Positions 3,990 to 25,257 of a stretch of DNA of 64,000 nucleotides are shown piece after piece (within the stretch, counting starts at the first letter, position 1; each line of letters starts with the position of its first letter). The notes beneath the pieces were generated by a model. That model worked only from the letters and a program-made list of their open reading frames with translations, did no database searches and had not been told where the DNA came from. The stretch is from a virus (lineage: Duplodnaviria > Caudoviricetes): positions 1 to 64,000 of the IMG/VR virus record IMGVR_UViG_3300042997_002652. The stretch is one strand, 5' to 3'. A program made the translations under genes and the position numbers.

Positions 3990-4162
3990 CTTTTCTTTAC
4001 TCTTCCTCTAAACCCTTGAGGGAAACTGTCAGTATTTACCGGTCTATTAAACCATTCTGGTGATCCAATCTTATAACTTAGTTGTTCTGTAGTTGATTGT
4101 TCTTTAGTTTCTTTTATACCAGCTATTCTTTTCCACTGTGCTAGTTCTTGATCATGTGTCAT
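3986..4162 (-). CDS. Small hypothetical protein (58 aa), not in ORF track
   Basis: MTHDQELAQWKRIAGIKE...PQGFRGRVKKR; fills the gap exactly, with 4-nt ATGA overlaps on both sides. Confidence 0.65.
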   Translation of the reverse strand: MTHDQELAQWKRIAGIKETKEQSTTEQLSYKIGSPEWFNRPVNTDSFPQGFRGRVKKR

Positions 4163-4713
4163 AAACTCTTACCCCACCTGGTAGATATCACATTCCAGTT
4201 GATAATCTTCCACTGTTCGTTTAAGTACTTTTCTTTGTCAGTTCCATAGTCCAACAAAAATGCATGTTCCCACCAGTCAATGAGTAACAATATATCATCT
4301 CTGACTTCATGATTCTTGATTGTTTTAATCTTGCCGTCGTAGGCCAAGTAAGCCCAACCTGATCCCTGTATAGTCATAGCTTCTTTCAAAAACTCATCTT
4401 TAAAGTTTTCATAACTTTTAAAGTGTTTGTTTATAAAACTTAACACAGGACCATTAGGTTTATTGTTGTTTCTTACTTCACGATACTGAGTGAATAACGT
4501 GTTATGTAAAAATGCTCCTGCGAAATTAAACTCAGGATCTCCTTCACCAGCATTATATCGCGTAGCATAAGCGTGGGCAAGTTTGCCATAGTGTAGTTCT
4601 ATGGTATCTTTACTCATAACGGGACTAACTTCACTATCAGTAAAGTTGCGTTTGATTATCTCAATGTCTTGAGGTTTTGACTTTTGTTCTAATAAATTTA
4701 TAATATCGCGCAT
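4159..4713 (-). CDS. sod: Fe/Mn superoxide dismutase
   Basis: Metal ligands in ELHYGK, FLHNTLF, DWWEHA; GSGWAYL motif. Confidence 0.9.
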   Translation of the reverse strand: MRDIINLLEQKSKPQDIEIIKRNFTDSEVSPVMSKDTIELHYGKLAHAYATRYNAGEGDPEFNFAGAFLHNTLFTQYREVRNNNKPNGPVLSFINKHFKSYENFKDEFLKEAMTIQGSGWAYLAYDGKIKTIKNHEVRDDILLLIDWWEHAFLLDYGTDKEKYLNEQWKIINWNVISTRWGKSL

Positions 4714-4745
4714 AATCTAGTATTTATGATTGTGCGAGAATTAAG

Positions 4746-4964
4746 TTACTTTCGTCTAGTGATTCTTCCACGATTCAAATCATAGGGTGAGCATTCTATT
4801 TCAACTTTGTCACCCATCAAAATTCTTATTTGATTCTGACGCATCTTGCCAGATATGTGTGCGAGAATAGTATGTCCTATTTCAGTCTTGACTTTAAACA
4901 TAGCATTTGGCATAACATCTACTATGTCTCCTTCTAGCTTTACTGTATTGTCTTCTTTGGCCAT
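4746..4964 (-). CDS. infA: Translation initiation factor IF-1
   Basis: 72 aa; PNAMFKV...[35 protein letters not shown] is the IF-1 signature. Confidence 0.95.
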
Positions 4965-4984
4965 ATAAGTGGTTTTTATTGCTC

Positions 4985-5395
4985 CTATTTTTTAATTGTG
5001 TTCCAAATCTTTTCTTTCTCTAAGATATCTTTTTCAAGTTCTCTATACTGTTCGCCTAGTGCTTTTAACTGTTCCCAACGTTCTTCTAAGTCTTTATTAG
5101 GGTGTAAAATAGCTAATCGTTTTTCAATATTATCTATTGCGTCTGCTAAACTTTTACCTTTTATTTTTAGATCACCCTCAATTTCAGCATCACCTTTAAC
5201 ATGTAATGGATTATTACTTGTAATAGTAGTATCCCAACTTGTGTTAATACCATTCCACATTAGTGTTTGCCCTGCCGCACTTAGTGTTTGCCCTGCCGTA
5301 CCGGTGTTGATAGTATAAGGAGACAGCGTGGTACCTGTAGTGTAAATTCCCTGAGCACTGATAGATTCAAGTGATGTAATAGTTTGTTGACTCAT
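4985..5395 (-). CDS. Hypothetical protein, C-terminal coiled coil
   Basis: 136-aa ORF with GGAG RBS. Confidence 0.7.
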
Positions 5396-5583
5396 TTATA
5401 TACCTTTTTAATAAAAATGCGGCCATCTTCTCCTACGCCTATGTCTAGTTCATCACCCTCTTTCCATCCCATTTGTTTTAGTAAATGAGGCGGAATAGGA
5501 AGAATTAAATCTCCTGAGCCGTCGTCGGCTTCGTGAGTAATAGTTTCATAACGTAAATTGTCTTTACCGGGTTGATTGGCCAT
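5392..5583 (-). CDS. AbrB/MazE/SpoVT-like DNA-binding protein
   Basis: LILPIPPHLLKQMGWKEGDELDI swapped-hairpin pattern; TTGACT-17-TATAAT upstream (5590-5618). Confidence 0.7.
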   Translation of the reverse strand: MANQPGKDNLRYETITHEADDGSGDLILPIPPHLLKQMGWKEGDELDIGVGEDGRIFIKKVYK

Positions 5584-10651: not shown

Positions 10652-10960
10652 TTAGATAAACTCGTTAAGGCTGCTAAAAACTTGAGTAATAAACTTGTGT
10701 TCCAGGATTACAGTTTCGCCTGCATCGCGCTTTACTGCGCCCTTAAACAGGGAAAACCCTTTGTCAACTGTAACATGATGCTGAACTTCACCGCCAAATG
10801 CTACACGGCTGAGTTTGACCACACCGCTTACATTTACCGAATCCATGTAACGACCCTTAACGCGAAGACCTTCCAAGTTCCAGTTCATGTTAGTTCCACT
10901 CCTTTCGGTTATCAGCATTGTCAGCATAGCCCTGCTTGTATGCAGCCACTTCTTCAGCAC
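10652..10960 (-). CDS. Hypothetical protein (true start probably MNWNLEG)
   Basis: ORF track; GGAG RBS before the internal ATG. Confidence 0.55.
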   Translation of the reverse strand: MLKKWLHTSRAMLTMLITERSGTNMNWNLEGLRVKGRYMDSVNVSGVVKLSRVAFGGEVQHHVTVDKGFSLFKGAVKRDAGETVILEHKFITQVFSSLNEFI

Positions 10961-11111
10961 TCATGTCTACTTCTTCAATCTTAGTTGAAGAGTAAGTAGC
11001 ACCAGTAAAGTAATGGGGCGTATAAGGGCGACCGTAAAAAGCATCTGCTGCACCACGATCATAAGCACCACCGTGTCGTGTGAATGGAGTGCGTTTTGAG
11101 TAGTCTGTCAT
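10890..11111 (-). CDS. Hypothetical early protein
   Basis: RHGGAYDRGAADAFYGR; own promoter cassette and AGGAG RBS. Confidence 0.7.
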   Translation of the reverse strand: MTDYSKRTPFTRHGGAYDRGAADAFYGRPYTPHYFTGATYSSTKIEEVDMSAEEVAAYKQGYADNADNRKEWN

Positions 11112-11143
11112 GCTGTTTGCTCCTGTTCGTTGACTATAAAGCT

Positions 11144-11171
11144 ATTATAGCAGATTTGGGCAAGAAGTCAA
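11144..11171 (-). promoter_or_regulatory. Sigma70-type early promoter cassette copy
   Basis: TTGACT-N16-TATAAT with TG extension. Confidence 0.85.
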
Positions 11172-11174
11172 GCC

Positions 11175-11354
11175 TTAATCAAAAAAGTTGCCGGGCTGAC
11201 ATACAAATTCATTCTTACCAGCATCAGCCCATACCATGGGATGCAAATCCAACTTGTCAATAACCTGACGGTTACACATTTCCATCGCCTTACCAATGGA
11301 CTCAGCGGTGAACTCGTAGGTTTCTTTCTTTACATAAAATTTGACTGTAATCAT
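11175..11354 (-). CDS. Small hypothetical protein (59 aa), not in ORF track
   Basis: MITVKFYVKKETYEFTAES...CQPGNFFD; GAGGA RBS; preceded by a -35-only half promoter (11375-11385). Confidence 0.7.
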   Translation of the reverse strand: MITVKFYVKKETYEFTAESIGKAMEMCNRQVIDKLDLHPMVWADAGKNEFVCQPGNFFD

Positions 11355-11385
11355 AATTTGATCCTCTTTATTTTAGTCAAGCCTT

Positions 11386-11742
11386 TTAGATCAGTACTTG
11401 AATTTTGTTGAAACCGAAATCGTCAACCATGTGAAACTCACCGGTTGGATCTTGGATGATATCGCCGACACTGACAGAATGCATACGGTCAAGGCGAACT
11501 ATTTTTGCTTCAGGACCGACATTACCGACATGAAATACTTCATCTAAGTCACTAGCGGCAATTTCACACACGGGGGTAAAGTAGGCGAACATTGATGGTT
11601 CCCACTTAGCAGAACCTTGAAAGCGGATGTCCATTGAAACTTTATATTCGGGGTATTTAACAGCAGCTTCAGCGTGTCCGACTTCATTAACGTAATCGTA
11701 CACTTGTCTTGCAATCTTAAGCTGGTAAACTTTGTATGACAT
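11386..11742 (-). CDS. YodL-like domain protein
   Basis: YKVYQL start; DLDEVFHVGN...MHSVSVGDII. Confidence 0.55.
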   Translation of the reverse strand: MSYKVYQLKIARQVYDYVNEVGHAEAAVKYPEYKVSMDIRFQGSAKWEPSMFAYFTPVCEIAASDLDEVFHVGNVGPEAKIVRLDRMHSVSVGDIIQDPTGEFHMVDDFGFNKIQVLI

Positions 11743-11775
11743 CTAGACTCGCTCCTTTTCTCAATTTGTATAGCT

Positions 11776-11803
11776 ATTATAGCAGAAATTACCCAAATGT
11801 CAA
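11776..11803 (-). promoter_or_regulatory. Sigma70-type early promoter cassette copy
   Basis: TTGACA-N16-TATAAT; the TGA in the -35 is the stop codon of the upstream gene. Confidence 0.85.
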
Positions 11804-12153
11804 GCCTTATTGAACTCCTGAACGTCTTTAATTGCGCTCAATACTTCAGCCAGTGCAGCCAATTCATACTGTTCAATAAGATTTGAAGTTGGTAAAGTAC
11901 TTTGTGCTGGGTACTTGGCTTTATGAATAACGCGATCAGTAACGATAGAAACTATATCGTCACCTTGTTCAATGCTTTCAAGTACTTGTTTTAACACACG
12001 TTCTTTGGCGGCAGCTTGAAAAACTGAAATACCCCAAGTAAGAGTATAAGCAGCATCAACTGCCATTTTAGCAGTAAATTCAGCAATCTCGGCTTGTACG
12101 CTTACCAAGTCACGCTGAAAACGATTAGTGATATACGCTTTTTCTGAAATCAT
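11800..12153 (-). CDS. Hypothetical early protein
   Basis: 117-aa ORF with AAGGAG RBS. Confidence 0.7.
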   Translation of the reverse strand: MISEKAYITNRFQRDLVSVQAEIAEFTAKMAVDAAYTLTWGISVFQAAAKERVLKQVLESIEQGDDIVSIVTDRVIHKAKYPAQSTLPTSNLIEQYELAALAEVLSAIKDVQEFNKA

Positions 12154-12184
12154 TTTACTGCTCCTTTTCTCAATTTGTATAGCT

Positions 12185-12212
12185 ATTATAGCATATTTGG
12201 GTAAGAAGTCAA
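12185..12212 (-). promoter_or_regulatory. Sigma70-type early promoter cassette copy
   Basis: TTGACT-N16-TATAAT; 34 nt (12160-12193) identical to 11751-11784. Confidence 0.85.
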
Positions 12213-12252
12213 GCCTTTGGGTGAAATAATTTTCCTAAGGAAATCAGTGCTT

Positions 12253-12522
12253 TTATACAGTCTGAGTTACAGTAACATCACCTTCATACACAGTTACTTT
12301 CAGTCCAGGTCCCAGATTCCGAATCTGAGCGGCTATAGTATTCGCCTCAGCTTTGCTGATGTCCGGGGTCCAGGGACCAGTCCTGGTTGACCGATTATCA
12401 TAAACGCGATATTTATACCCGCGATAATCACCGTAGTTAAAGTTGTCTCTGCGAGTTTTGGCAACTGTCAGACCGGTAACATTTTTGATGATACGGTTAA
12501 TTGCTGATGCGTAACTTTTCAT
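12253..12522 (-). CDS. Hypothetical early protein
   Basis: 89-aa ORF. Confidence 0.65.
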   Translation of the reverse strand: MKSYASAINRIIKNVTGLTVAKTRRDNFNYGDYRGYKYRVYDNRSTRTGPWTPDISKAEANTIAAQIRNLGPGLKVTVYEGDVTVTQTV

Positions 12523-12557
12523 GTCTGATTTCTTCGTGTTGTTTGCTATATGTAGTT

Positions 12558-12585
12558 ATTATAGCACATTTGGGCAAAGAGTCAA
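12558..12585 (-). promoter_or_regulatory. Sigma70-type early promoter cassette copy
   Basis: TTGACT-N16-TATAAT. Confidence 0.85.
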
Positions 12586-12631
12586 GCCTTTGGCTAAGAT
12601 ATTTTCTATTATTTTAAAGAAACCACTAAGC

Positions 12632-12815
12632 TAAGTTGTTGATTTATAAAGAGATTTTTAACAAAGAATCAATAGCTTACGTTACCTGCTCAACATCTAG
12701 GATACTTATGTGAGTGTTGATGCTGCTGTAAAAAAGAAAAACCTGAAACTGTAATGAAATCAATCACTTACAGTTTCAGGTTATGTTTAGCAATCCTAAT
12801 AAAATCAATGACTTA
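12632..12815. promoter_or_regulatory. Cluster of four IHF-consensus boxes in the largest non-coding gap
   Basis: WATCAANNNNTTR at 12632-12644 (reverse), 12667-12679, 12758-12770, 12803-12815. Confidence 0.65.
12740..12782. repeat. Perfect 15-bp inverted repeat with 13-nt loop
   Basis: aacctgaaactgtaa-tgaaatcaatcac-ttacagtttcaggtt. Confidence 0.9.
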
Positions 12816-12820
12816 GTTGG

Positions 12821-13036
12821 TTACCAAGTTTCCTTGATCTGATCAACGATATTTTTAAAAGTGGGTGCTGTTTCTTTAATCTGATTTCTTATAATCCCAA
12901 CCATGGCCTTTGCTGTTTCCCAAAGCACCTCAGCAACAATCAGTAGTAACAGAAAGGGAGCAGCACACAATGCCATCAAAATAATAAGAGGTCTGCGTAC
13001 CCAAGGGTTTTCCATATCAGGAAAATAGTTGTTCAT
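12821..13036 (-). CDS. Hypothetical membrane protein
   Basis: Single long hydrophobic segment. Confidence 0.6.
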   Translation of the reverse strand: MNNYFPDMENPWVRRPLIILMALCAAPFLLLLIVAEVLWETAKAMVGIIRNQIKETAPTFKNIVDQIKETW

Positions 13037-13257
13037 ATATCCTCACTTTGTTTATTTGTTATACCAAATTTAATGTATTTATACCATATTCTTTCGTGCA
13101 TGTAGTACCATACTGTAGCAGTTACTAACTTTGCTCCTCCCAGTATCGCACCTAATTCAAAACTACCAGTTACTAACCATGCAATTAGTAAACTGTCAAT
13201 TGAACCTATTATTCGCCAACTTATAGCTTTGGCAACATGCCTACGCTTTAGGATCAT
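13033..13257 (-). CDS. DUF2061-like membrane protein
   Basis: RHVAKAISWRIIGS...YYMHERIW. Confidence 0.75.
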   Translation of the reverse strand: MILKRRHVAKAISWRIIGSIDSLLIAWLVTGSFELGAILGGAKLVTATVWYYMHERIWYKYIKFGITNKQSEDI

Positions 13258-13499
13258 TTAATATCAAAATGTCTTTTAATCGCAGCACTACATTCTTTGG
13301 CAAATATAGCAGTAGGTGCTTGGTCATGTAGAAAACTTCCACCGTCCACAACATTTACACATTCTTTCACAATCAACTCGGCGAACTGTTCCATCTGTTC
13401 GTAACTTCCACCAATTGAGTATCTACCCACAGTGATGTCATCGCCAAAATCCGCCAACACATTTGCTTGTTTAGCAATTTCTAAAATTCGTTCGTTCAT
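13254..13499 (-). CDS. Hypothetical protein (MNERILEIAKQA type)
   Basis: Probable start at 13499; EQFAELIVKEC motif. Confidence 0.7.
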   Translation of the reverse strand: MNERILEIAKQANVLADFGDDITVGRYSIGGSYEQMEQFAELIVKECVNVVDGGSFLHDQAPTAIFAKECSAAIKRHFDIK

Positions 13500-13556
13500 C
13501 GCTTTATCACATCCAATTCCATAATTAAAACTATCCTCGCATAATACCAATGTTTT

Positions 13557-14615
13557 TTATTTGTTTTCATCTTTTTTCCATTTGTTAATTATTTCAATAA
13601 AAGTTGTATTAGATTGTAATTGTTGGTACATCTGCTTAGCCAAATCATAATGTTCATTGGGGCCCGGATGAACGTAGTCTCTTGCTATCGTTTGAACAAA
13701 CAAATTTTCATATAGCGTTTTGTCTCGTAGATGAGCATCAATGTAGTGATTCTGTAATTCTTCAGGTATAGAACAATCTATATTTGTATCTTCGGTGTGA
13801 GCGGCTATATTATAAGCACTAAGGTCATTACCCCAAAAACTAAAGAACCACGGTATATTTTTAGATTGTAAAAAATATTTGATGAACAGTAGACTACGAA
13901 AACAGTCATGGTATAATTGTCTGTAGTTAATATTTTTTGTCATCGCTTCGTGAGCTGCTGTCGCGATGTGCGATGCGCCGGGACGCAAATAACCTAAATA
14001 ATGCCAAATATACGGTATATTTTTATCGTCAGTTATTATTAATTCTTTTCTAGTAACAGGTGGAAATAAAAAATAAACCATATCAGGACTAGCATTATCA
14101 TGCTCAATTGCAGTATACACATATCGTATAGCTGCATCTAAGCTTCTACCTCCCTTCCCTAAATTTAATTTTGCTATAGGTGCACTAATTTGTGTGCAAA
14201 TCATGTCAGTCAAAAAACTATGCCAAATGTGGTCTTCCGGCAAGCCAATCCCTTCAGTTAATGAGCATCCACTTACCATCAAAGTTTTATATTTTCGGGC
14301 ATCTTCAAATTCTGAAGGGGCGCAACCTGCGCGATGCCCTCTAGAGGTATAGGAATATACTATGTCATTTTCGCCATATGTTTTATTACTCGGCACTAAA
14401 GCATTCTTTAAGGAGTTTTTTCTGAATGTCTGTTCATCATCCCTTGTACAGTACCATTTAAATGACGTAAGAGCTTCCCCAAATGTTGTAAAATCATACC
14501 AATTCCAAAGATTTACTCTATTAGCTGGATAGGGACATGTTTTTGGTAATCTTGCTACACTACTGCTGTCCCGGACATTTGCTTGTTCAGCAAGTTCTCT
14601 AATTCGTTCGTTCAT
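13557..14615 (-). CDS. SGNH/GDSL hydrolase-like protein
   Basis: VSGCSLTEG block I, NLGKGGRS block II, DYVHPG block V. Confidence 0.65.
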   Translation of the reverse strand: MNERIRELAEQANVRDSSSVARLPKTCPYPANRVNLWNWYDFTTFGEALTSFKWYCTRDDEQTFRKNSLKNALVPSNKTYGENDIVYSYTSRGHRAGCAPSEFEDARKYKTLMVSGCSLTEGIGLPEDHIWHSFLTDMICTQISAPIAKLNLGKGGRSLDAAIRYVYTAIEHDNASPDMVYFLFPPVTRKELIITDDKNIPYIWHYLGYLRPGASHIATAAHEAMTKNINYRQLYHDCFRSLLFIKYFLQSKNIPWFFSFWGNDLSAYNIAAHTEDTNIDCSIPEELQNHYIDAHLRDKTLYENLFVQTIARDYVHPGPNEHYDLAKQMYQQLQSNTTFIEIINKWKKDENK

Positions 14616-14851
14616 CGTTTTAACACATCCACTAAGTGTATTTGATCGTAAGCTACTTTAGCAGCTTCGTTTAGTTTGTTTAAATAAGTAGCATAATCAT
14701 GTGCCCTGCGCGTTTGTGTTTCTTTATCATAAAGATCACCAAAAGGAAACACAGCGGCATGCGGTCTACCTTCACTGACATCACGAGCATCAGATACTAC
14801 TATCCAATCACCTCTGTTGTTGATCCAAACTTTAAATACGCGATTACTCAT
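14612..14851 (-). CDS. Hypothetical protein
   Basis: 79-aa ORF, coupled overlaps. Confidence 0.65.
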   Translation of the reverse strand: MSNRVFKVWINNRGDWIVVSDARDVSEGRPHAAVFPFGDLYDKETQTRRAHDYATYLNKLNEAAKVAYDQIHLVDVLKR

Positions 14852-15114
14852 TAGTGAATCCTCTCTTCATCCTCAAACGCCACAAACTTACCAGCGTCAA
14901 TCAGGTTTTCAATTTCAGTGTCAATAGCATCCAGTTCAGGCATTTCAAATTCTAGTTTACCTAATTCAGATAAAAAATCAATCACAGAGTCTTCAGCACC
15001 TTGCGGAATAACGATCACTCGTGGCTCACTTTTATCAAGATGATCATAGTTACCTTCAGCAGCCTGTTCTATCATTTGTTTTAGTATATCACGCCAATCC
15101 ATTTTCTCACTCAT
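14851..15114 (-). CDS. Hypothetical acidic protein
   Basis: 87-aa ORF. Confidence 0.65.
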   Translation of the reverse strand: MSEKMDWRDILKQMIEQAAEGNYDHLDKSEPRVIVIPQGAEDSVIDFLSELGKLEFEMPELDAIDTEIENLIDAGKFVAFEDEERIH

Positions 15115-15532
15115 AAGTCCAGCCCAATACCTTCTTTAGTTTATTCTTTACTAAAAGATTGGGCATTCTAACACGCTTAGTGTCTTCAAAGCCCATCATA
15201 ACTCCGACTTCTGCTACTGCCCCGCTACGGCACAATCCAGCATGGCAATGTACTATCACATGGCGTTTGTAGAACAAAGCAAGTTCCAAGATTTCTATGA
15301 TCTCCAGAGCCTGAGCATCTGTGATCAGCTTTTTGGGCACGAAAGGAAATTCTCCAGCGCCCTCGTTGTCTTCAGCATCATGAAACTGAAAATGGTGCTT
15401 GGCAACATAGCTATGCGCAGTAACAGGAGCAGGGGTACCTGGATCAGTAATCTGAATCAGATAGCTATCACCAGGATGAGGGTAGTCACCTGACTCAGCT
15501 TGTGCGTAAGATATGTTGATGATTTTGGGCAT
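15107..15532 (-). CDS. Protein-tyrosine/dual-specificity phosphatase-like protein
   Basis: VHCHAGLCRS (CX5R) P-loop. Confidence 0.85.
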   Translation of the reverse strand: MPKIINISYAQAESGDYPHPGDSYLIQITDPGTPAPVTAHSYVAKHHFQFHDAEDNEGAGEFPFVPKKLITDAQALEIIEILELALFYKRHVIVHCHAGLCRSGAVAEVGVMMGFEDTKRVRMPNLLVKNKLKKVLGWTYE

Positions 15533-15795
15533 TAAAATGCTACCTTTTGCTTTTCAACATCACGAAAGTTTACCTGAAATTTCATCATTTTCAAGTAGCC
15601 GTGAGTACCGCAGAGTCGCACATGTTTCTCTAAACCATAATATTCATGTGCAAAAGTTTTAATCGTGATCCAGGGAATCAATTCTTGATTGGCGTTCAGA
15701 TCCAGATCAATAGATGTAATCTCTCCACGCATGGTACCTGCATGACACTCCCAGCGTACACGATCACCTACACGGATATCAGTAACATTGCTCAT
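15532..15795 (-). CDS. Hypothetical protein
   Basis: 87-aa ORF. Confidence 0.65.
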   Translation of the reverse strand: MSNVTDIRVGDRVRWECHAGTMRGEITSIDLDLNANQELIPWITIKTFAHEYYGLEKHVRLCGTHGYLKMMKFQVNFRDVEKQKVAF

Positions 15796-16028
15796 TATCT
15801 TGCTCCTCTAGTGTATGATTTTACTGAATCAATTAACTTTTTTGCTTCAGATTTATTTTTAACAAGTATCATGCTGTGATTCATAATGCCAAAAACATTT
15901 TTCTTATCTTTTGTCTCTAGCCAACATGCAGCATCGGCCACAACCAGCCATCCGTGCTGTTTTTTACGAGCCACTGCAATCCTACGCTTCCCATCAAAAG
16001 CAACCAGTGTATTATCTTTGATGGTCAT
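15795..16028 (-). CDS. Hypothetical early protein
   Basis: 77-aa ORF, AAGGAG RBS, own promoter. Confidence 0.65.
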   Translation of the reverse strand: MTIKDNTLVAFDGKRRIAVARKKQHGWLVVADAACWLETKDKKNVFGIMNHSMILVKNKSEAKKLIDSVKSYTRGAR

Positions 16029-16059
16029 CTGTCTTGCTCCTTTCGTTGACTATAAGATA

Positions 16060-16087
16060 ATTATACACTATCTGGGTAGAATGTCAA
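16060..16087 (-). promoter_or_regulatory. Sigma70-type early promoter cassette copy
   Basis: TTGACA-N16-TATAAT; -35 TGA is the stop of the 16084-16578 gene. Confidence 0.85.
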
Positions 16088-16578
16088 GCCGCGTTAAGCT
16101 CTTTCAAAGCTTTGCAAGTATCATTATATCCCAGAACACGCCCGTCCCTGAAGGTATATGAAACATCGTAGTTTGCGCGTTCGCCACCGGTCTGCATATC
16201 ATACTGCTCGGTTTTAAAAGCAACTTCCTGACGCATATATCCGTATGCGTCATTCATAACAGTGCGCCTAGCGACCCAGCGACCCTGCTCATAGAACAGT
16301 TCAAACGGGGTTTCCCATTCTTCGCACACAGTAGCATCATCGTCCATGATTGACCAATCAATCACATACTCTTGAAAACTCTCGTTGCTAGTCTCAACCA
16401 AAGACTTAAGAGTAGGAATACCCGTATCCTTGATCTTGAGAACTTGCGTAACCGTGAGATTGGGTACTACATAAGTGTCGCCGCCCTTGCACTTCCAATG
16501 CTGCGGGCACTCACCTTTACCGTCCCAATCATGCGCACCGTAGTTTTCACGAACTTGAGTCTGAATTACGAGTTTCAT
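16084..16578 (-). CDS. Hypothetical early protein
   Basis: MKLVIQTQVRENYGAHDWDG...WKCKGG. Confidence 0.75.
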   Translation of the reverse strand: MKLVIQTQVRENYGAHDWDGKGECPQHWKCKGGDTYVVPNLTVTQVLKIKDTGIPTLKSLVETSNESFQEYVIDWSIMDDDATVCEEWETPFELFYEQGRWVARRTVMNDAYGYMRQEVAFKTEQYDMQTGGERANYDVSYTFRDGRVLGYNDTCKALKELNAA

Positions 16579-16608
16579 TTGTTGCTCCTTTTCGTTGACT
16601 ATATGATT

Positions 16609-16678
16609 AGTATACAGTATTTGGGTAAAGAGTCAAGCCTTTGGCTGAAAATAAAACTCTTTGAAAATCAACAACTTA
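16609..16678 (-). promoter_or_regulatory. Early promoter cassette plus upstream IHF box
   Basis: TTGACT-N16-TATACT (16609-16636); AATCAACAACTTA at 16666-16678. Confidence 0.85.
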
Positions 16679-17050
16679 CATTGACCAATACGTTTCCGAA
16701 GCAGGGGAGCAGCACAGCGGGGTATCAGCGCGTTCCTGAAACTCTTTACCTGACATAAGATTTTTGCGAGTAACCATACGAGCACCGCCATAGCTATTAT
16801 AGCTGCGAATTCGGCTCTGACGGTTGCAGCGAATAACTTGAATATCAACTTTTTCATTCAAAGCATTTTTGGCTTTCATGTAGGTAGACATATCACAGTC
16901 TTCCTCAAGAAACACGTTATCGCCCTTGGTATAGCTGTAATGAGTAATTTTGTCAGCAATATCAAGACGTTCCAATTCGCTATAAGGAACGCGCAACCAA
17001 CCATGACCGGGATCAGAGTAGAACTGAAACTTGCTTTTTGCTTTAGACAT
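16676..17050 (-). CDS. Hypothetical early protein
   Basis: FYSDPGHGWLRVP...FLEEDCD. Confidence 0.75.
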   Translation of the reverse strand: MSKAKSKFQFYSDPGHGWLRVPYSELERLDIADKITHYSYTKGDNVFLEEDCDMSTYMKAKNALNEKVDIQVIRCNRQSRIRSYNSYGGARMVTRKNLMSGKEFQERADTPLCCSPASETYWSM

Positions 17051-17080
17051 TTCGCGCTCCTTTTCGTTGACTATGAAGTA

Positions 17081-17108
17081 ATTATAGCAGGTTTGGGTAA
17101 GAAGTCAA
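17081..17108 (-). promoter_or_regulatory. Sigma70-type early promoter cassette copy
   Basis: TTGACT-N16-TATAAT; -35 TGA is the stop of the upstream gene. Confidence 0.85.
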
Positions 17109-17575
17109 GCCTTTTTACTAACTATCTGAACCCGGTTGGTGTAGTTATTGAATTCTTGTTCGGTCAGCTCTTTGCCGTTGATATACCACTCACAACTGCC
17201 ATTAGCCCATTCACGAGCAGGGCCGTCTACGCGGTGCCGTTTATCGTTGACATACCACGCGCGGTCTCCGTTAGTACATTCCACAGCAGGCCCGTCTGTG
17301 CGGTGACGTTTGCCGTCGACTACCCAAAAACGGCTACTAGCATATTCGCAAGCAGGGCCGTTTTCGCGGTGAAGTTTGCCGTTGAAGTACCAAACGCGGA
17401 CCCCGGTAGTATATTCGAAAGCAGGGCCATCTGTTCTGTGTGGTTTGCCGTTTACCCACCAAGCACGATAGCCATTAACCCCTTCGATAGCAGGGCCGTC
17501 TTCGCGGTGACGTTTGCCATTGACATACCAAAAACGGTCGCCGTTGTCATGTACTTTTACTTGATATTTTTTCAT
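17105..17575 (-). CDS. Repeat protein with five 22-23-aa WxVNGKxHRxDGPA units (MORN-variant-like)
   Basis: 66-69-nt tandem units 17218-17530; probable start MKKYQ at 17575. Confidence 0.8.
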   Translation of the reverse strand: MKKYQVKVHDNGDRFWYVNGKRHREDGPAIEGVNGYRAWWVNGKPHRTDGPAFEYTTGVRVWYFNGKLHRENGPACEYASSRFWVVDGKRHRTDGPAVECTNGDRAWYVNDKRHRVDGPAREWANGSCEWYINGKELTEQEFNNYTNRVQIVSKKA

Positions 17576-17608
17576 GCATTCGTGCTCCTTTTCGTTGACT
17601 ATGTGTAT

Positions 17609-17678
17609 ATAATAGCACATTATACCCAAATGTCAAGCCTTTGGGTAAAAATAAAACTCTAATAAAATCAATGACTTA
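17609..17678 (-). promoter_or_regulatory. Early promoter cassette plus upstream IHF box
   Basis: TTGACA-N16-TATTAT (17609-17636); AATCAATGACTTA at 17666-17678. Confidence 0.85.
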
Positions 17679-17722
17679 CGAAAACTCATAAATAATCTTT
17701 ATCTTTCAAGGAGTTATGCAAT

Positions 17723-18094
17723 ATGCTAGTACACAAACATTTGATTATTAGAGCAGAAATTAATAACCCACCCCGTGACCCTGAATGGGTTATTAACTGG
17801 TTAAAAGAGTTGACAGGTAAAATTGGTATGAAAATCTGCATGGGACCTATCAGCGCATATGTTGACGTTCCCGGCAATAGAGGGGTAACTGCGGTTGTAG
17901 TAATTGAAACTAGTCATATGGCTATACATGTTTGGGATGAGGGAAGTCCTAGTTTGATTCAAATGGATGTGTACACTTGTGGCCAGTTAGATACCGATAT
18001 TATCTTTAAAGAACTAGAACAGTTTGAACCAGTTAAACTAGAATACAAGTATCTAGACAGAGAACATGGATTAACAGAAATCTCTGTTAACTAG
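17723..18094 (+). CDS. speD: S-adenosylmethionine decarboxylase proenzyme family protein
   Basis: GVTAVVVIETSHMAIHVWDE and DVYTCG motifs. Confidence 0.8.
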   Translation: MLVHKHLIIRAEINNPPRDPEWVINWLKELTGKIGMKICMGPISAYVDVPGNRGVTAVVVIETSHMAIHVWDEGSPSLIQMDVYTCGQLDTDIIFKELEQFEPVKLEYKYLDREHGLTEISVN

Positions 18095-18484: not shown

Positions 18485-19183
18485 CTAAAGTGTATTGTCG
18501 TAATCATCAGCACCAGCAAAATCCCAAGAAGAATCTTTAAATTCTTGAATAGCTTCTATTGTACCCTCTACAGGATTAAATCCATAAGTCCAATACTTGA
18601 TTAATCTTTTAGGCGCTTGTTTAGTAATATGATTAAATCTAAGTGAATGACTATTAATATCCTTAACAGTCATTTCACCTAAAATCCATTCGTTACCAGT
18701 TGTAGCTACTTGACATACACTAATGTCAAAGTGATCAATAACTTCTTTAATAGTGTCAAAATACTTACAAGTAATTATTTGTACTTTCCAATTTTTATTA
18801 TTTGCATTTATATTAAACGTACATGCGTTATCCGTTTTTATAACTACATGCGAATGACCATGGCTATAGTCCGACAATCCAATATGTTTAATATAGTCTA
18901 TTAGCTTTTCTGCTTGTTTTTCATTTTTACAAAAAACATCTATGTCGCTGTGTTCACCAACTGGAATATTTTGAAACCAACGTAAACAAGCTCCACCTGC
19001 AATCCAAGGGCCTTTATCTATATCAGGGTTAATAACATTGACGGGCAATTGATCATCAGGATGAACTGTTTGATATTTACATAGTGAACCCAGTTCTTTT
19101 TTCGCTCGTTTTGGCTCACTAAAGATTGAATCTTCTTGGTTCCACGGGATTGCGATTACATTAGACCATATGCTCATTTTCAT
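18485..19183 (-). CDS. Nucleotidyltransferase of the CCA/poly(A) polymerase head type
   Basis: WIAGGACLR...SDIDVF and FDISVCQ motifs. Confidence 0.7.
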   Translation of the reverse strand: MKMSIWSNVIAIPWNQEDSIFSEPKRAKKELGSLCKYQTVHPDDQLPVNVINPDIDKGPWIAGGACLRWFQNIPVGEHSDIDVFCKNEKQAEKLIDYIKHIGLSDYSHGHSHVVIKTDNACTFNINANNKNWKVQIITCKYFDTIKEVIDHFDISVCQVATTGNEWILGEMTVKDINSHSLRFNHITKQAPKRLIKYWTYGFNPVEGTIEAIQEFKDSSWDFAGADDYDNTL

Positions 19184-19770
19184 TACCTCTTAGTAACTAC
19201 TTCGTCTGCTAGTCCATATTCAACAGCTTCGGCAGCAGACATAAAAAAGTCTCGCTCCATGTCCTTAGCTAATTCTTCAAACGTTTTATTTTTACTGTTA
19301 TGCTTGACATAGATTTCAGTAAGAGACTTCTTCATTGCCAAGATTTCTTTTACTTGAATTTCCATATCAGTTGCTTGACCACGAGCACCTCCGGAGGGCT
19401 GATGAACCATATGACGAGCATTGGGCAGAATTTTACGTTTACCAGGAGAACCAGCTTGTGCTAAAAGTGATCCCATTGAACAGGATTGTCCCATTACAAT
19501 AGTGTTCACATCTGGTTTGATAAACTGAATTGTATCGTAAATAGCCATGCCTGCAGTAACAGAGCCGCCGGGAGAATTTATATAAAGAAAGATGTCTTTG
19601 TCCGGATCTTCTGATTCCAGAAACAAAAGCTGGGCTACAATCAAGTTAGCCATTTGATCATGAACTTCACCTTCAAGTAGTATTACCCGATCTTTTAACA
19701 AACGTGAATAAATGTCGTAACTACGTTCACCGCGTGAAGTTTGTTCAATTACAATGGGAATCAATGCCAT
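19183..19770 (-). CDS. clpP: ATP-dependent Clp protease proteolytic subunit
   Basis: [14 protein letters not shown]; YINSPGGSV; catalytic Ser (SMGS), His (MVHQP), Asp (RDFFM). Confidence 0.97.
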
Positions 19771-19845
19771 AAAAAATCCTCTTAGTTATATTATGTGAGA
19801 TTCTATAATACACTAAGAGGATTAGTAAATCAATATAAATGGTGA

Positions 19846-21381
19846 TTACTTGCGTTTGGCTCTACCCACATCACCTGTTTTTGTCTTGTCTTTTTCAGGT
19901 CTAGTAGCTCTGCCAGTTGCGATTTGTTTTGCTGCCTTATCTAGTTTTACTTCGGGTTTCTTGCCTGCAGCACTTGCAGTTTCTTCACTATCTTCTTTTG
20001 GAACTCCCGCTCCTTTGTCTATCTTAAAGGTAAAGTTTCCTTTTATGCCTGTACTGTAATAAGTTTTACCAGCAGAAAGATAAACACCTTTAATAGAATC
20101 TCCTGGATACACAGTGTTGAATTCTTGTAGAGTCCAAGTATCTTTACCTTCTTTGGCTTTAGTATAAACTTGAACTAATGCGCCGTTGTTTAAGATATCA
20201 GATGCAGCTTTTGGAAAGTCAGTATTATCGTTAACTTTATCTGCTGCTTTGTGTGCTACTTCTGCTAATAAATGAAAATATAAACTAGTGTTTTCAGGAG
20301 TTTTAGTTCCTCTGTTCAACGCCATTTTCTTTAATCGTGATGATATGTCCACACTGTCTATATCGTTTAAGTTTATAGGAGCCATATTTTTTAAGTCTTC
20401 TATTTGACTAGCTTCTTTGGCATTGATAATACCAAATTTTACTCCTAACATCAAAGGGGCACCTGATTGTCCTTCTCTTTTAATATCTTCTAATAAACCA
20501 ATAGTTTCTTGATGCTTTCTTATTAATCTACTACCTGCTGGAGTTTGTTTCATTTCTTCAACACTATCTAACAAGTTTTTAACACTTGCTTTAGCCCCAG
20601 CCCCGCCTTTAGTACTTATTTTTATAATCTTACCTTGAGGATTGGTTAGAATGCTATCACTAAGTCCAGCAGTTTTACTAGTATCAAACGTGATAAGAGT
20701 ATCAGCAAATGATCCATCCATGAACACTTCGGCAGCTTCACCTGCGTTACCTGTATAGTTTCCAGTTTGTAGTGCCATTGGTTGTAAAATCTCGCAGAAG
20801 TAATCTCTAAACGCACTAAAGCTTACATCACTAGGAGCAGTAAAATGCAATGGTAGTTTTTCACCATTAGCTATTCTTCGTGCCACTGTATATAGAGGAT
20901 TGTCTGTACCTAAACTAGTAGCTAGTTGATTTATGATATCGTCTGAAGTTAAATCAATCTTGTCAGATAATAAATCTTGTGGTGATAAACCTGCTTGTGC
21001 TTTAGCAGCAGCTTTACCTGCAAAAGAGTAATCTCCTATTTTGTTAGGGAAAAAATTACTAGTTAAGTTTGGTTTTATCTGCTCAAAATATTTACCAAAA
21101 TATAATTCACCTTGATCTGAAGAAAAAGATGCAATAGCAAATCCGCCAGATTTCGCTGAAGGTGAGTTCGTCCACTGAACTTCAATACCATCCGTAACTT
21201 GATTTACTGTTTGCTCAAGTTCTTCTTTGGTTAGTTTTCCGCCACCTTCAGGAAAAAACTGTATACTATTGAATACTATTTGGTCATTTTCTGAATTGCG
21301 GAAAACGTCTCCGGGCTTTCTACCCGCTAGACCAGTTGATTCGGTTAATAATTCTAATGTGTTTAATAAGTTTCTAATCAT
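19846..21381 (-). CDS. Hypothetical 511-aa protein, possible PD-(D/E)xK-like nuclease fold, with LLTE leader
   Basis: GLSDSILTNPQGKIIKISTKGG; TAAATA upstream. Confidence 0.55.
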   Translation of the reverse strand: MIRNLLNTLELLTESTGLAGRKPGDVFRNSENDQIVFNSIQFFPEGGGKLTKEELEQTVNQVTDGIEVQWTNSPSAKSGGFAIASFSSDQGELYFGKYFEQIKPNLTSNFFPNKIGDYSFAGKAAAKAQAGLSPQDLLSDKIDLTSDDIINQLATSLGTDNPLYTVARRIANGEKLPLHFTAPSDVSFSAFRDYFCEILQPMALQTGNYTGNAGEAAEVFMDGSFADTLITFDTSKTAGLSDSILTNPQGKIIKISTKGGAGAKASVKNLLDSVEEMKQTPAGSRLIRKHQETIGLLEDIKREGQSGAPLMLGVKFGIINAKEASQIEDLKNMAPINLNDIDSVDISSRLKKMALNRGTKTPENTSLYFHLLAEVAHKAADKVNDNTDFPKAASDILNNGALVQVYTKAKEGKDTWTLQEFNTVYPGDSIKGVYLSAGKTYYSTGIKGNFTFKIDKGAGVPKEDSEETASAAGKKPEVKLDKAAKQIATGRATRPEKDKTKTGDVGRAKRK

Positions 21382-21393
21382 AATGTATTTATC

Positions 21394-21894
21394 TTAACAC
21401 TTATCTAATCGTTGATATCTAAACCATCTTTTCATGCCGCTTGATCTTTTCAATACAAGTCCGTATTTAGCAAGTTGTTTTCTAAATGTATAGAAACTAG
21501 GACCATGACTCATTACGGGGTATTTGCCTTCTAAATGTCTTGTTTTACTGTACACATCCCATTGATACTGATGAGCCATTTCGTGTGCTAATGTGTTTAT
21601 TAGCCATTGTTTACAATACCATTTATCAGACAGTCTTATTTTACATTGGGAACTTTTCTTTTTAGGATTGAATCCAGTAGACATACACATACCCCAGTAT
21701 CCTCTACAATGACTTTTTACTTCTAACTTAGCAGGCGGTAATTCGTTGTTGAAAATTTCTTCATTGATAATGTTATAAAGTTCTCTTACTTCTCTTTTGG
21801 TAGTTCTATATGATAGCTTTTTTTGCAAGACAAGACTTGGAAGAGGTTCAGACATTAGTAGCATTAGTTTAGAAGTCATGCAATTATTTATCAA
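21394..21894 (-). CDS. SprT-like zinc metalloprotease
   Basis: TLAHEMAHQY and SHGPSF motifs. Confidence 0.8.
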   Translation of the reverse strand: MINNCMTSKLMLLMSEPLPSLVLQKKLSYRTTKREVRELYNIINEEIFNNELPPAKLEVKSHCRGYWGMCMSTGFNPKKKSSQCKIRLSDKWYCKQWLINTLAHEMAHQYQWDVYSKTRHLEGKYPVMSHGPSFYTFRKQLAKYGLVLKRSSGMKRWFRYQRLDKC

Positions 21895-21942
21895 TATAAA
21901 AATACAAAGTATGCAATAATTAACTAAATATAGTTTTAGGAG

Positions 21943-22425
21943 ATGATCTTTATGATTATAGAAAGTATTATTGGTATCGTAGTAATAGGAGCAGTTGCAT
22001 ATTTGTTTTGGAAAAGCAACAAAGATGCACCCAGTACTGATTTAAACAATGACGGAAAAACTGATATAAAAGATTTTTTTGTAGCTTTAGAAAAATCTGT
22101 ATCAGGCTTAGCATCAGTAGCTGATGTTAACAAAGATGGAAAAGTAGATGTAGATGACGCTAAAGTAGTTGTTGAAACTGTTAAGACTAAAATTAGTGAA
22201 ACAGTAGAAAAAGGCAAAACGGTTGCAAAAAAGATTAAGAAATCTACACCAGAAGTTAAACCCGAACCTGCTGCTACTCCCAAAAGAGCTAGAAACAACG
22301 GGAAACTTGTTGCTGACAACCCTGCTACCCCTGAAGTAAATGAAGCTTGGGAAGGCGGCAAAGCACCAGAAAAGAAACCAAAACCCAAGAAGCCAAAAAA
22401 GCCTAAAATGACCGTAGTAAAATAA
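21943..22425 (+). CDS. Membrane-anchored protein with EF-hand/dockerin-like DxNxDG repeats and Lys/Pro-rich tail
   Basis: N-terminal TM; DLNNDGKTDIKD and DVNKDGKVDVDD. Confidence 0.65.
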   Translation: MIFMIIESIIGIVVIGAVAYLFWKSNKDAPSTDLNNDGKTDIKDFFVALEKSVSGLASVADVNKDGKVDVDDAKVVVETVKTKISETVEKGKTVAKKIKKSTPEVKPEPAATPKRARNNGKLVADNPATPEVNEAWEGGKAPEKKPKPKKPKKPKMTVVK

Positions 22426-22428
22426 ATT

Positions 22429-23124
22429 ATGGAAATAGGGTTTGATGTAATTAGTGATCTTTGTCTGTCCCCTAACGATAATTTCAAGTGGACAAACAAA
22501 GCAACTAGCTTGTATTGCATTGTTGCAGGTAACATAAGTTCTGATACTAGAACTATCATTCAAACATTAGGTCATCTTGCTAAGTACTACCAGGGAGTTT
22601 TTTATATTCCTGGTAGATTAGAATATGAAGGCTTTGATGATGTTGAAATGAGAACTGAAGAGTTGGCAGCAATATGTAATCATTTGGATCATGTAGCAAT
22701 ACTTTATCATAATGTAGCCATGATAGATGGTGTTGCAATAGTGGGTGTAAATGGATGGGGTAACTTAACTGAAGAGTATAGTATTCCTAACATTCAACGG
22801 TTGCATGAACGAGAAGATGATTTACTATACCTTTATAAAACCATAGAAAGACTACAAGTACATTTAGATGTTAAAAAAATATTTATAGCTTCTAGTGCTG
22901 TTCCTAGAAAAGATTTATATTTCGGTCAACTTCCTGAGTATATAGACACTATGCCTACGCTAAGCTCATGTGCTCAGTATGATACAGAAAAAAAGATGTC
23001 TAATTGGGTGTTTGGTACGTATGAAAACGTAGTTGACATTACGATTGATAATGTCAACTACGTTAACAACCCTTATTTTAAATCAAGAAATTATTGGGCC
23101 AAACGAGTAACTATTAAGATATAA
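22429..23124 (+). CDS. Metallophosphoesterase-fold protein with degenerate active site
   Basis: SDLC, AGNI, PGRLE in place of SDxH, GD, GNHE. Confidence 0.6.
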   Translation: MEIGFDVISDLCLSPNDNFKWTNKATSLYCIVAGNISSDTRTIIQTLGHLAKYYQGVFYIPGRLEYEGFDDVEMRTEELAAICNHLDHVAILYHNVAMIDGVAIVGVNGWGNLTEEYSIPNIQRLHEREDDLLYLYKTIERLQVHLDVKKIFIASSAVPRKDLYFGQLPEYIDTMPTLSSCAQYDTEKKMSNWVFGTYENVVDITIDNVNYVNNPYFKSRNYWAKRVTIKI

Positions 23125-23430
23125 TTACTGTTCGCTTTCTACTTTGATCTGAAGTGGAAATCCCTGTGATCTAGCATCAAGAGTTACTTCAATGCCGCGC
23201 TGCTCAGCAATTTCATAAGGTAGCACTGCTACTACTGCACTTCCAATCTCATGAATTTTTTGAGTTATGGTAGACGCAGTATCTGGATTGTAATTAAAAT
23301 ACTCAATAAGTGAAGATATAACAAATTCCATAGATGTTACATTATCATTCATATAAATAATTTTAAACAAAGGCGGTTCTTTTAAACTAGTGTTGGGTTT
23401 GATTTTACTGTTTATTTCTGCATTTGGCAT
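23125..23430 (-). CDS. clpS: Clp protease adaptor ClpS
   Basis: PPLFKIIYMNDNVTSMEFV...IHEIGSAVVAVLPYEIAE...FPL. Confidence 0.93.
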   Translation of the reverse strand: MPNAEINSKIKPNTSLKEPPLFKIIYMNDNVTSMEFVISSLIEYFNYNPDTASTITQKIHEIGSAVVAVLPYEIAEQRGIEVTLDARSQGFPLQIKVESEQ

Positions 23431-23488
23431 TTCGTATTACCTCTTGTAAAAGCAGCCAGCAAAACACTGACTGCGTATGTTTATATTA

Positions 23489-23944
23489 CTATTTATTGTA
23501 AGCAATAGCAATTGTCTTGGGCTTTTGTTCTTCTGGAATTTCACGTTTTAAGTAAATAGCAAGAATTCCCAATTCAAGATTCGCATTTACAATTTCTACA
23601 TGATCAGCTAGTTTAAACTCACGCTTAAAGTATCTGCTACTAATTCCTTTATGTAGAACTTTATAACTAACATCATCTTCATGAACTGGTATCAGTGGGT
23701 TACCTTCTATCACTAAAAAGTTTTTATCCTTAGTAACTTTTAAGTTTTCTGGTCCAAAACCAGCTACAGCCAATGAAATTGAAAACTCATCTTCATTGAT
23801 TTGAGTTATGTTATATGGAGGGTAGTTATCAGTTTGTTTAGAATCTAGTCTAAACAGTTCGTCAAAGACTGAATCAAACCCGATTGCGAATTTGTGTATT
23901 GAGGGAATATCGGTGGAACGAAGGGTTAAAGTTTTGCTTGTCAT
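23489..23944 (-). CDS. ibpA: Small heat-shock protein (Hsp20/IbpA family)
   Basis: IGFD, NYPPYNI, LAVAGF, LHKGISSRYFKREF, NLELGIL. Confidence 0.93.
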   Translation of the reverse strand: MTSKTLTLRSTDIPSIHKFAIGFDSVFDELFRLDSKQTDNYPPYNITQINEDEFSISLAVAGFGPENLKVTKDKNFLVIEGNPLIPVHEDDVSYKVLHKGISSRYFKREFKLADHVEIVNANLELGILAIYLKREIPEEQKPKTIAIAYNK

Positions 23945-24006
23945 AGTAGTCTCCTTAAGTTAAGCAAGATTTTTTAATGTAGACCTGACCATTCAGCATC
24001 TACATT
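23945..24006 (-). promoter_or_regulatory. ROSE-like RNA thermometer in the hsp20 5' UTR
   Basis: UCUUGCUU pairs with the SD AAGGAGA leaving a bulged G (23950-23969); upstream hairpin 23976-24006. Confidence 0.6.
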
Positions 24007-24045
24007 AGTATTTATTATACATGATTGCGTAAAAAAATATATCTT

Positions 24046-25257
24046 TTAGGGAAAATAAAGTTCTTTTGGATCTAAGACCATGTCTTGTGTAATTACTAAA
24101 TCCTTAATACCATTTGTTACATAGTGCGATATATGAAACATATGCGGTAATAACACTTTTTCTATTTCACTGTGTAATCCCCTCGCTCCAGTTTTAAGAA
24201 TGATACAATTTTCTGCAAGTTGATCTATTGCTTCTGTAGTAAATCTTAAATCTATACCGTCTAATGAAAAAATATACTTATACTGTTCTATGAAACTGTT
24301 CTTGAGTTGTGTTAGTATTCTTATCAACTCAGGTTTATCTAATTGTTCTAATGTTACAGTAGTTGTAAATCTACCTATAAATTCTGGTATCATTCCAAAC
24401 TTAATTAAGTCTTCGGGAGTAACCAAACTTTGGTCAATAATATTATCTTTTGATTTTACTTCAGCACCAAATCCAATTGATGACCCTTGTACTCTACTTC
24501 TTAGTATATCACTCAAACCACTAAAAGCTCCGCCGGCAATGAACAAAATATTTTTTGTATCTACTTCTATTGTATCACTGTTTGGATTCTTTCTTTTACC
24601 TGAAGCACTTACGCGACATTTCGTGCCTTCTACAAGTTTGAGCAATGCTTGTTGTACACCTTCACCAGAAACGTCACGAGTAATACTAGTGCTTTCTCCT
24701 TTTCTAGCTATCTTGTCTATTTCATCAATAAACACTATTCCTCTTTCAGCAATAGAAACATCTCCGTCAGCTATTGCCAATAACATTGATATCATACTTT
24801 CTACGTCATCACCTACATAACCTGCTTCAGTTAAGCTAGTAGCATCAGCAACCACGAAAGGCACATTAAGATACTTAGCAACTGATTTAGCAAGTAATGT
24901 TTTACCGCTGCCAGTTGGACCTATCATTAATACATTACTTTTTGCTATTTCAATATCTTCAGGAGGTTCGTTATTGATTCTTTTATAATGGTTTGTTATT
25001 GCAACACTAATTGCGATTTTTGCTCGGTCTTGCCCTATAACATGATTATCTAAATGCTTTTTTATACTGTAAGCATCTGCTTTTTTTGCTTTACTTTCTA
25101 TTATAGTTGGATTGTTTTCTTCTACTATAAGTTGGTTACATAACTCAATACAGTCGCTACATATAGCAACGTTATCACTTACTATCAATTTGGTAACTAA
25201 ATCTTTATGATTATTACAAAACGAACAATAAGACAATTTATTTTCTGACATGAACAC
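24046..25257 (-). CDS. clpX: ATP-dependent Clp protease ATP-binding subunit ClpX
   Basis: CSFC...CSDC zinc domain; GPTGSGKT; EAGYVGDDVE; FIDEIDKI; RDVSGEGVQQALLK; TGARGL. Confidence 0.97.
   Translation of the reverse strand: MFMSENKLSYCSFCNNHKDLVTKLIVSDNVAICSDCIELCNQLIVEENNPTIIESKAKKADAYSIKKHLDNHVIGQDRAKIAISVAITNHYKRINNEPPEDIEIAKSNVLMIGPTGSGKTLLAKSVAKYLNVPFVVADATSLTEAGYVGDDVESMISMLLAIADGDVSIAERGIVFIDEIDKIARKGESTSITRDVSGEGVQQALLKLVEGTKCRVSASGKRKNPNSDTIEVDTKNILFIAGGAFSGLSDILRSRVQGSSIGFGAEVKSKDNIIDQSLVTPEDLIKFGMIPEFIGRFTTTVTLEQLDKPELIRILTQLKNSFIEQYKYIFSLDGIDLRFTTEAIDQLAENCIILKTGARGLHSEIEKVLLPHMFHISHYVTNGIKDLVITQDMVLDPKELYFP

Follow-up and report, generated by a model that had tools for sequence, protein, structure and literature searches.

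Repeated promoter units as probable exchange joints between small genes of an uncultured freshwater jumbo phage

Introduction

Can a repeated promoter also be the joint at which phage genes are exchanged? The question is raised by a stretch of 64,000 nucleotides (nt), hereafter the window, which is the first 64 kb of the 266,967-bp IMG/VR virus record IMGVR_UViG_3300042997_002652. Between 11112 and 17678 of the window, eight near-identical units lie on the minus strand. Each consists of AAGGC-TTGAC(A/T), a 16-nt spacer and TGn-TATAAT, followed by a conserved leader with a ribosome-binding site. A first-pass annotation of the window had noticed the eight units, with the motif written in the transcribed orientation, and our analysis recovered all of them. 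It had further proposed that the units are the recombination joints of a recombinase-free, integron-like array of gene cassettes. We consider it probable that the units are strong early promoters with a shared leader, which double as crossover and gene-conversion substrates for general recombination. This would be the mechanism of the promoter-early stem-loops (PeSLs), here mostly without the stem-loop.

The PeSLs of RB49 and phi1 are repeated promoters of the sigma-70 type that come close to the consensus; an AT-rich tract precedes them, and their 3' end carries a Shine-Dalgarno sequence and a start codon (Arbiol et al. 2010, PMC2839356). They are clustered among small genes without known function in hyperplastic regions, and crossovers of indels and replacements fall within the element (PMC2839356). 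In KVP40/nt-1 and T4/PST, runs of single open reading frames (ORFs) carry an element in every intergenic space, and degraded '1/2 PeSLs' keep only the −35 (Comeau et al. 2014, PMC4122927). These elements have a recognisable stem-loop, such as A3-4G3-loop-C3T3-4 (PMC4122927).

The phage studied here can be placed as an uncultured freshwater jumbo phage of the T4 superfamily, because its DNA polymerase shares 43-50% identity with the enzymes of Agrobacterium phage Atu_ph07, Sinorhizobium phage Phosso and the GAP32/CBB group. Nearly all genes of the window are on the minus strand. Neither the array DNA (megablast) nor one unit (blastn) had a match among cultured phages.

Results

Anatomy of the units

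The motif TTGACW-N16-TATWMT was found 14 times in the window, compared with 0.26 expected from shuffles, and eight of these occurrences lie on the minus strand at 11144-17636. Exact copies of AAGGCTTGAC number 10 in the window, every one of them in minus orientation. Over the full record, 23 copies on the minus strand and one on the plus strand were counted, in clusters at 11-17, 30-34, 121-134 and 166-168 kb. About 24 units were recognised in the record, all on the minus strand and co-oriented with the genes. With 10-12 of 12 positions matching TTGACA/TATAAT and a spacer of 16 nt, the units are near-consensus sigma-70-type promoters by sequence. In most of them TG precedes the −10, which makes an extended −10. 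Conservation is as strong in the spacer as in the −35 and −10 hexamers.

The leader is ATAGTCAACGAA(A/C)AGGAGC in five of the eight array units and ATACAAATTGAGAAAAGGAGC in two; the remaining one, P12590, has a weak ribosome-binding site. In seven of the eight, GGAG stands within the conserved leader, 5-9 nt before the ATG, in agreement with the ribosome-binding blocks annotated earlier after most units.

The conserved element is the entire stop-to-start intergenic region, 65-105 nt long. In the short form, coding sequence reaches AAGGC, and the upstream gene stops either at +1, in the TGA of the −35, or 6-17 nt earlier. In the long form, a conserved TAAGTTRTTGATTT module lies ~42 nt upstream and supplies the TAA at which the preceding gene stops; after it comes an AT-rich, UP-like tract, which is present in ~10 of the 24 units (e.g. 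16641, 17641 and 30146). A few units have a longer gap, which contains a palindrome. Each of the three reading frames meets a stop codon inside the unit: TGA (−35), TAA (−10) or TAG (leader). As the first-pass annotation had read them, the ORFs ending at 11800, 16084 and 17105 take their stop codon from the TGA within the TTGAC of the following unit.

Overall identity between unit copies is 60-80%, with shared exact stretches of 19-34 nt. The longest annotated repeat, 34 nt at 11751 and 12160, was reproduced; a second one, reported as 27 nt at 17624 and 30129, is real and measures 28 nt (17623/30128).

Folding of the −35 region, and of the 105 nt upstream of it, gave z-scores near zero in most units, and the idea that a stem-loop generally belongs to the unit was therefore rejected. 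Different results were obtained for 17636 and 30141, where a palindrome TACCCAAA-GGCTTGACA-TTTGGGTA surrounds the −35, and for 129729, 132842 and 167130. Terminator-like sites were not found between the array cassettes, nor were Rfam families or tRNAs in the array region.

Several short motifs accompany the units. The 9-mer TACCCAAAT lies in the promoter spacer in either orientation, depending on the unit (e.g. 12196-12204 and 11790-11798). TAAGYNRTTGATT has 16 copies, against none when the reversed sequence served as control; most of them are found where long-form units have their 5' edge (G000 12632-12815, 132872-132907, 167185 and others), and the motif is at times a perfect palindrome, forming a hairpin followed by a T-run. 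TAAGTTRTTGATT is likewise present in 16 copies and sometimes perfectly palindromic. ACCCAAAT is also frequent outside units.

Junctions inside units

Comparison with relatives, which the first-pass annotation had proposed as a check, revealed gene gain and loss with breakpoints inside the repeats, both in the array and at a second locus. In the array, the slot concerned is that of a 156-aa (amino acid) gene between units P17641 and P17113. In the relative L143 (93% nt identity), homology stops at 17583, at the end of the P17641 leader, and restarts at 17118, 5 nt before the AAGGC of P17113; an unrelated 82-aa ORF occupies the slot. In L142 (81-88% nt identity) the 156-aa gene is absent, and a single hybrid unit with a P17641-type promoter and the shared leader runs straight into the 124-aa gene. 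The crossover zone is the 20-nt leader repeat common to P17113 and P17641. The slot was thus seen in three states (156-aa gene, 82-aa gene, empty), with its boundaries within units. Two further genes are extra in the window, a 77-aa gene behind P16087 and a 73-aa gene behind P11176, each at the 3' edge of a leader.

The second locus is an AAA-type gene (120122-121144 of the window's genome) which is common to four phages and has a unit directly upstream; the cassettes preceding it differ. Here L042 and L046 are 94.6% identical, and L046 equals L042 plus exactly one 292-nt cassette. The single unit of L042 combines the 5' flank of the first L046 unit with the spacer, −10 and leader of the second, and the crossover therefore lies inside AAAGGCTTGAC. 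Both junctions, the empty slot of L142 and the cassette of L046, are clean from unit to unit. Breakpoints in units were thus found for L142 and L143 against the window and for L042 against L046, without enrichment over unit-free junctions.

An apparent breakpoint of the relative G001 at P17641 was rejected, as the contig merely ends inside the unit (window 17615). The L009 contig also ends within a promoter unit (position 1); both ends are probably assembly breaks at the repeat.

Mosaic units, moved cassettes and a remnant

In a set of 59 units drawn from 12 sequences, each of the four leader types was found with both kinds of spacer (ACCCAAAT-like, and the reverse complement, ATTTGGGTA-like). 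Unrelated unit halves flank the exact blocks of 34 and 28 nt. Orthologous units have changed in part: in the G001 (94% nt identity) orthologue of P33658 a patch of −35 and spacer is replaced between nearly identical flanks, the L143 orthologue of P17113 has another leader, and the L142 orthologue of P17641 carries the alternative spacer type. The genome has six ATAGTCAACG leaders, and five of them are within this array, which suggests local homogenisation.

Cassettes are also found in new surroundings. A homologue of the 59-aa gene (95% aa identity) stands in L033 behind a complete unit, with unrelated neighbours. The 73-aa gene has a homologue (59% aa identity) in a different variable region of L047, and also in L015. 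L033 and L047 have a common unit with the same leader, driving different genes. In L033, three promoter units are immediately preceded by a gene for a SegE-like GIY-YIG homing endonuclease (2657-3325); this would be another possible route of mobility.

The −35-only remnant reported in the first-pass annotation is real. The copy of AAGGCTTGAC at 11376-11385 runs directly into the ribosome-binding site and start codon (ATG) of the 59-aa gene. Its proposed origin as a deletion scar is plausible, because ~40 nt, namely the spacer, the −10 and the 5' leader, are absent in the window relative to the full unit in L033.

Map and gene content of the array

The features are given from 3' to 5' along the window; all are on the minus strand.

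17580-17678: unit P17641, long form, with TAAGTCATTGATTTT module and AT-rich UP-like tract; 28 nt exactly shared with the unit at 30128. The −35 (17636-17631) is within the palindrome, the −10 TATTAT is at 17614-17609, and the leader is ATAGTCAACGAAAAGGAGC.
17105-17575: cassette gene of 156 aa, a repeat protein without known family; its stop is the TGA in the next unit's −35.
17051-17113: unit P17113, short form, with extended −10 (TGCTATAAT) and leader type 1; 20-nt leader repeat shared with P17641.
16676-17050: cassette gene of 124 aa; 96% (L143) and 92% (L142) aa identity.
16579-16678: unit P16641, long form; the TAA of the upstream gene is the first triplet of the TAAGTTGTTGATTTT module.
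16084-16578: cassette gene of 164 aa, from a large uncharacterised metagenome family; its stop is the TGA in the next −35.
16029-16092: unit P16087, GCGGCTTGACA variant, matching TTGACA/TATAAT at 12 of 12 positions; it heads a nine-gene operon.
12821-16028: nine-gene operon without internal units (77, 87, 141, 87, 79, 352, 81, 74 and 71 aa).
12730-12782: strong intrinsic terminator, a 15-bp stem followed by a U-run, which ends the operon begun at P16087.
12523-12590: unit P12590, with weak ribosome-binding site; core like L044 P2424, upstream flank like that of L044 P2643.
12253-12522: cassette gene of 89 aa, without homologue among the relatives sampled.
12154-12217: unit P12217, B-type spacer and leader type 2; leader and −10 share 34 identical nt with P11808.
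11800-12153: cassette gene of 117 aa; its stop is the TGA in the next −35.
11743-11808: unit P11808, A-type spacer (ATTTGGGTA) and leader type 2.
11386-11742: cassette gene of 118 aa, with a 44%-identical homologue in the same region of the distant relative L022.
11355-11385: degraded unit, the −35 remnant fused directly to a ribosome-binding site, ~40 nt gone.
11175-11354: cassette gene of 59 aa; homologue in L033.
11112-11176: unit P11176, short form, leader type 1.
10890-11111: cassette gene of 73 aa, between the unit and a conserved 78-aa gene (10652-10888); absent in L044.

One correction concerns the first cassette gene, which starts at 17575 and encodes 156 aa. For the cassette genes, no Pfam or PHROG assignment and no firm family was obtained, only weak matches, and no paralogues that would indicate duplication were found in the genome. 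The 164-aa protein has more than 1300 homologues in metagenomes. In the operon, the 141-aa protein gave a weak dual-specificity-phosphatase-like match and the 74-aa protein is a DUF2061 protein. The cassette genes are likely candidates for early host takeover or counter-defence.

The 81-aa and 352-aa proteins of the operon (starts at 13499 and 14615, minus strand) begin with a common stretch of 14 residues, 11 of which are identical. L044 has a single gene with a start like the 352-aa gene and a middle like the 81-aa gene. This suggests that the 352-aa gene was inserted at the 14-codon N-terminal repeat in coding sequence, and not at a unit.

A hyperplastic region between conserved genes

The hyperplastic region in which the units lie, among genes without assigned function, extends from clpP to a SWIM-finger gene. 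The backbone on both sides (clpX, clpS to clpP, and the SWIM-finger gene to a Metallophos gene) is conserved in 13 distant relatives at 55-63% aa identity. The gap from clpP to the SWIM-finger gene measures 8.5 kb here and 0.35-2.4 kb where both genes were seen in relatives (L010, L011, L020).

L044 (~77-85% nt identity) covers the whole region and keeps the operon core and the intergenic terminator region. Where the window has its eight single-gene cassettes, L044 has different ones (102, 73, 51 and 93 aa) and, in addition, a 421-aa gene. The core of P12590 is nearly identical to the second unit of L044, and the upstream flank of P12590 matches that of the first, a pattern that would be expected if one cassette had been gained or lost between two units. 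The core of the nine-gene operon is kept in L044, L142 and L143, but with many unit-free indels.

A metagenome scan with the phosphatase-like gene detected only relatives with aa identities of 44-52%, apart from one short contig with 69%; none of them has a unit, and the unit is therefore specific to this lineage. An IMG/VR scan with the 352-aa protein detected no relative.

Neighbouring genes and identical contigs

A proteostasis cluster adjoins the array (window 18485-25257), with genes for a ClpX-like AAA protein, HSP20, ClpS, a SprT-like protein and ClpP. The same interval encodes a 232-aa protein with a precomputed Pfam match to PF26128 (Gad2), which, going by its name, may be an anti-defence (anti-Gabija) family. 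The sole plus-strand gene of the region, an S-adenosylmethionine decarboxylase-like gene (17723-18094), points away from P17641; in L044 its place is taken by an unrelated 102-aa minus-strand gene. A row at 4159-5583 encodes a MazE-antitoxin-like protein (63 aa), an eIF-1a-like protein (72 aa) and an Fe/Mn superoxide dismutase, according to precomputed Pfam matches on identical contigs.

The contigs L137-L141 (window 1386-26578) are 100.000% identical to the window over 13-20 kb (NCBI GCA_043532305.1, JGI 3300042363, JGI 3300044716 and ENA ERZ27272072). One clonal genotype was thus found again in several assemblies.

Discussion

How genes could be exchanged at the units

As sigma-70-type early promoters, the units would give immediate expression of small accessory genes, most of which have no assigned function. 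The phage's own general recombination, through its RecA/UvsX homologue, could occasionally cross over between copies or convert patches of them, because the copies share exact stretches and are similar throughout. A gene would thereby be deleted, inserted or swapped, and an intact hybrid promoter with its leader would remain. Any upstream frame joined in this way would be closed by the unit's built-in stop codons. The role in recombination would be a by-product of unit similarity.

The term recombinase-free, as used in the first-pass annotation, is misleading. No tyrosine or serine site-specific recombinase (PF00589, PF00239) was found in the 267-kb record (76% complete), yet a RecA/UvsX-type recombinase gene is present, and general homologous recombination therefore suffices.

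Weighing the explanations

Two indels have their crossover precisely within the repeated unit, with a single intact hybrid unit left behind, spacer and leader types were seen in every combination, and patches have been replaced in orthologous units of relatives that are 93-94% identical. Together these observations require exchange between units. They are difficult to reconcile with units that are only promoters, kept similar by selection for strength and perhaps by a regulator site in the spacer, while turnover is due to other processes. Genes would then come and go by illegitimate or short-homology recombination at any gene boundary, or by homing endonucleases, and the link with the units would be incidental, because each small gene has its own promoter. 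We regard this explanation as rather unlikely. It agrees with the strong conservation of the spacer, with the endonuclease gene beside the units of L033 and with the apparent insertion of the 352-aa gene away from any unit. It also draws on the junction counts, which weigh directly against exchange at the units as the source of turnover. Synteny breakpoints, counted by hand from the gene table for the window against L143, L142 and L044, were found at seven of the eight unit junctions and at 10 of the 13 unit-free junctions. L143 has seven extra genes at one unit-free operon junction, and comparison of the window with G001 over 17.6-41 kb gave six indels or replacements at a distance from AAGGCTTGAC units. 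For homologous recombination to be efficient, exact stretches of 19-34 nt are short. The promoter activity and early timing of the units, as well as the recombination machinery acting on them, are what we infer from sequence. No structural variants were seen at the consensus level in the array, where four assemblies from independent samples are 100% identical (13-20 kb); these contigs came from exact-protein look-ups of two cassette proteins and are uninformative on turnover.

A dedicated process was also considered, in which a phage protein recognises the spacer motif ACCCAAAT/ATTTGGGT or the TAAGTTRTTGATTT module and directs excision and insertion of cassettes, as an integron integrase does at attC. 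Spacer and upstream module are conserved beyond the needs of a sigma-70 promoter, the spacer 9-mer is present in either orientation, and the TAAGTTRTTGATT copies with their occasional perfect palindromes could be read in the same sense. The crossover points vary, from the −35 core in L042/L046 to the leader in L142, and therefore fit exchange driven by homology and not cleavage at a fixed site. In the orthologous units of L143 and L142 the −35 palindrome is not retained, the spacer motif is common outside units, and no candidate enzyme of the tyrosine or serine type was found in the 76%-complete record. We consider such targeted exchange very improbable, the least probable of the explanations. 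Scarcely better are the chances of a broader version, in which the spacer 9-mer and the TAAGTTRTTGATTT module are recognition sites for a phage protein that targets recombination or the shut-off of early transcription; if it were true, the array would be a case of directed cassette exchange without any known integrase.

Exchange between promoter units by general recombination thus remains our preferred explanation, within limits. The units are usable and convenient joints and not the main cause of the region's plasticity, because unit-free junctions break about as often and the six G001 indels lie off units. Of the earlier proposal that the repeats act as recombination joints, the part that stands is based on the junctions in L142, L143 and L042/L046 and on the mosaic units; an excess of breakpoints over unit-free junctions was not found.

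Comparison with known elements

With the PeSLs of RB49 and phi1 (PMC2839356), the units share the promoter type, the 3' Shine-Dalgarno sequence and start codon, the hyperplastic location and the crossovers within the element. They differ in that most have neither stem-loop nor terminator, and upstream genes often stop inside or against the unit. In addition, the unit sequence is unrelated and lineage-specific, and the host phage is an uncultured freshwater jumbo phage. The remnant at 11376-11385 fits the description of the degraded, −35-only form of nt-1 (PMC4122927). Unlike in KVP40/nt-1 and T4/PST, a hairpin is present in a minority of the units, and it arises from an inverted −35 copy or from a TAAGTTATTGATTT palindrome.

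Integron cassette arrays also consist of single-gene cassettes separated by a repeated element, and relatives differ by whole cassettes. The array is integron-like by this analogy only. Each cassette here has its own promoter, whereas an integron provides one Pc for promoterless cassettes. There is no attC-type imperfect palindrome, and the crossover position varies between events. The integron reading itself was rejected, as no integrase (PF00589, PF00239) was found in the 267-kb record.

Significance

The mechanism has already been published as the PeSL model (PMC2839356, PMC4122927) and is not new; the present lineage is a further example. Caution is needed, as repeat-free junctions are equally unstable here: the repeated promoters would explain how some exchanges remain precise and expressible, not the plasticity of the region. 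The idea of PeSLs now also covers a lineage of uncultured freshwater jumbo phages, distant from the T4-type phages in culture, and the junctions are unusually clean, with one slot in three states. They indicate that the stem-loop is dispensable and that a repeated promoter and leader alone can act as a joint.

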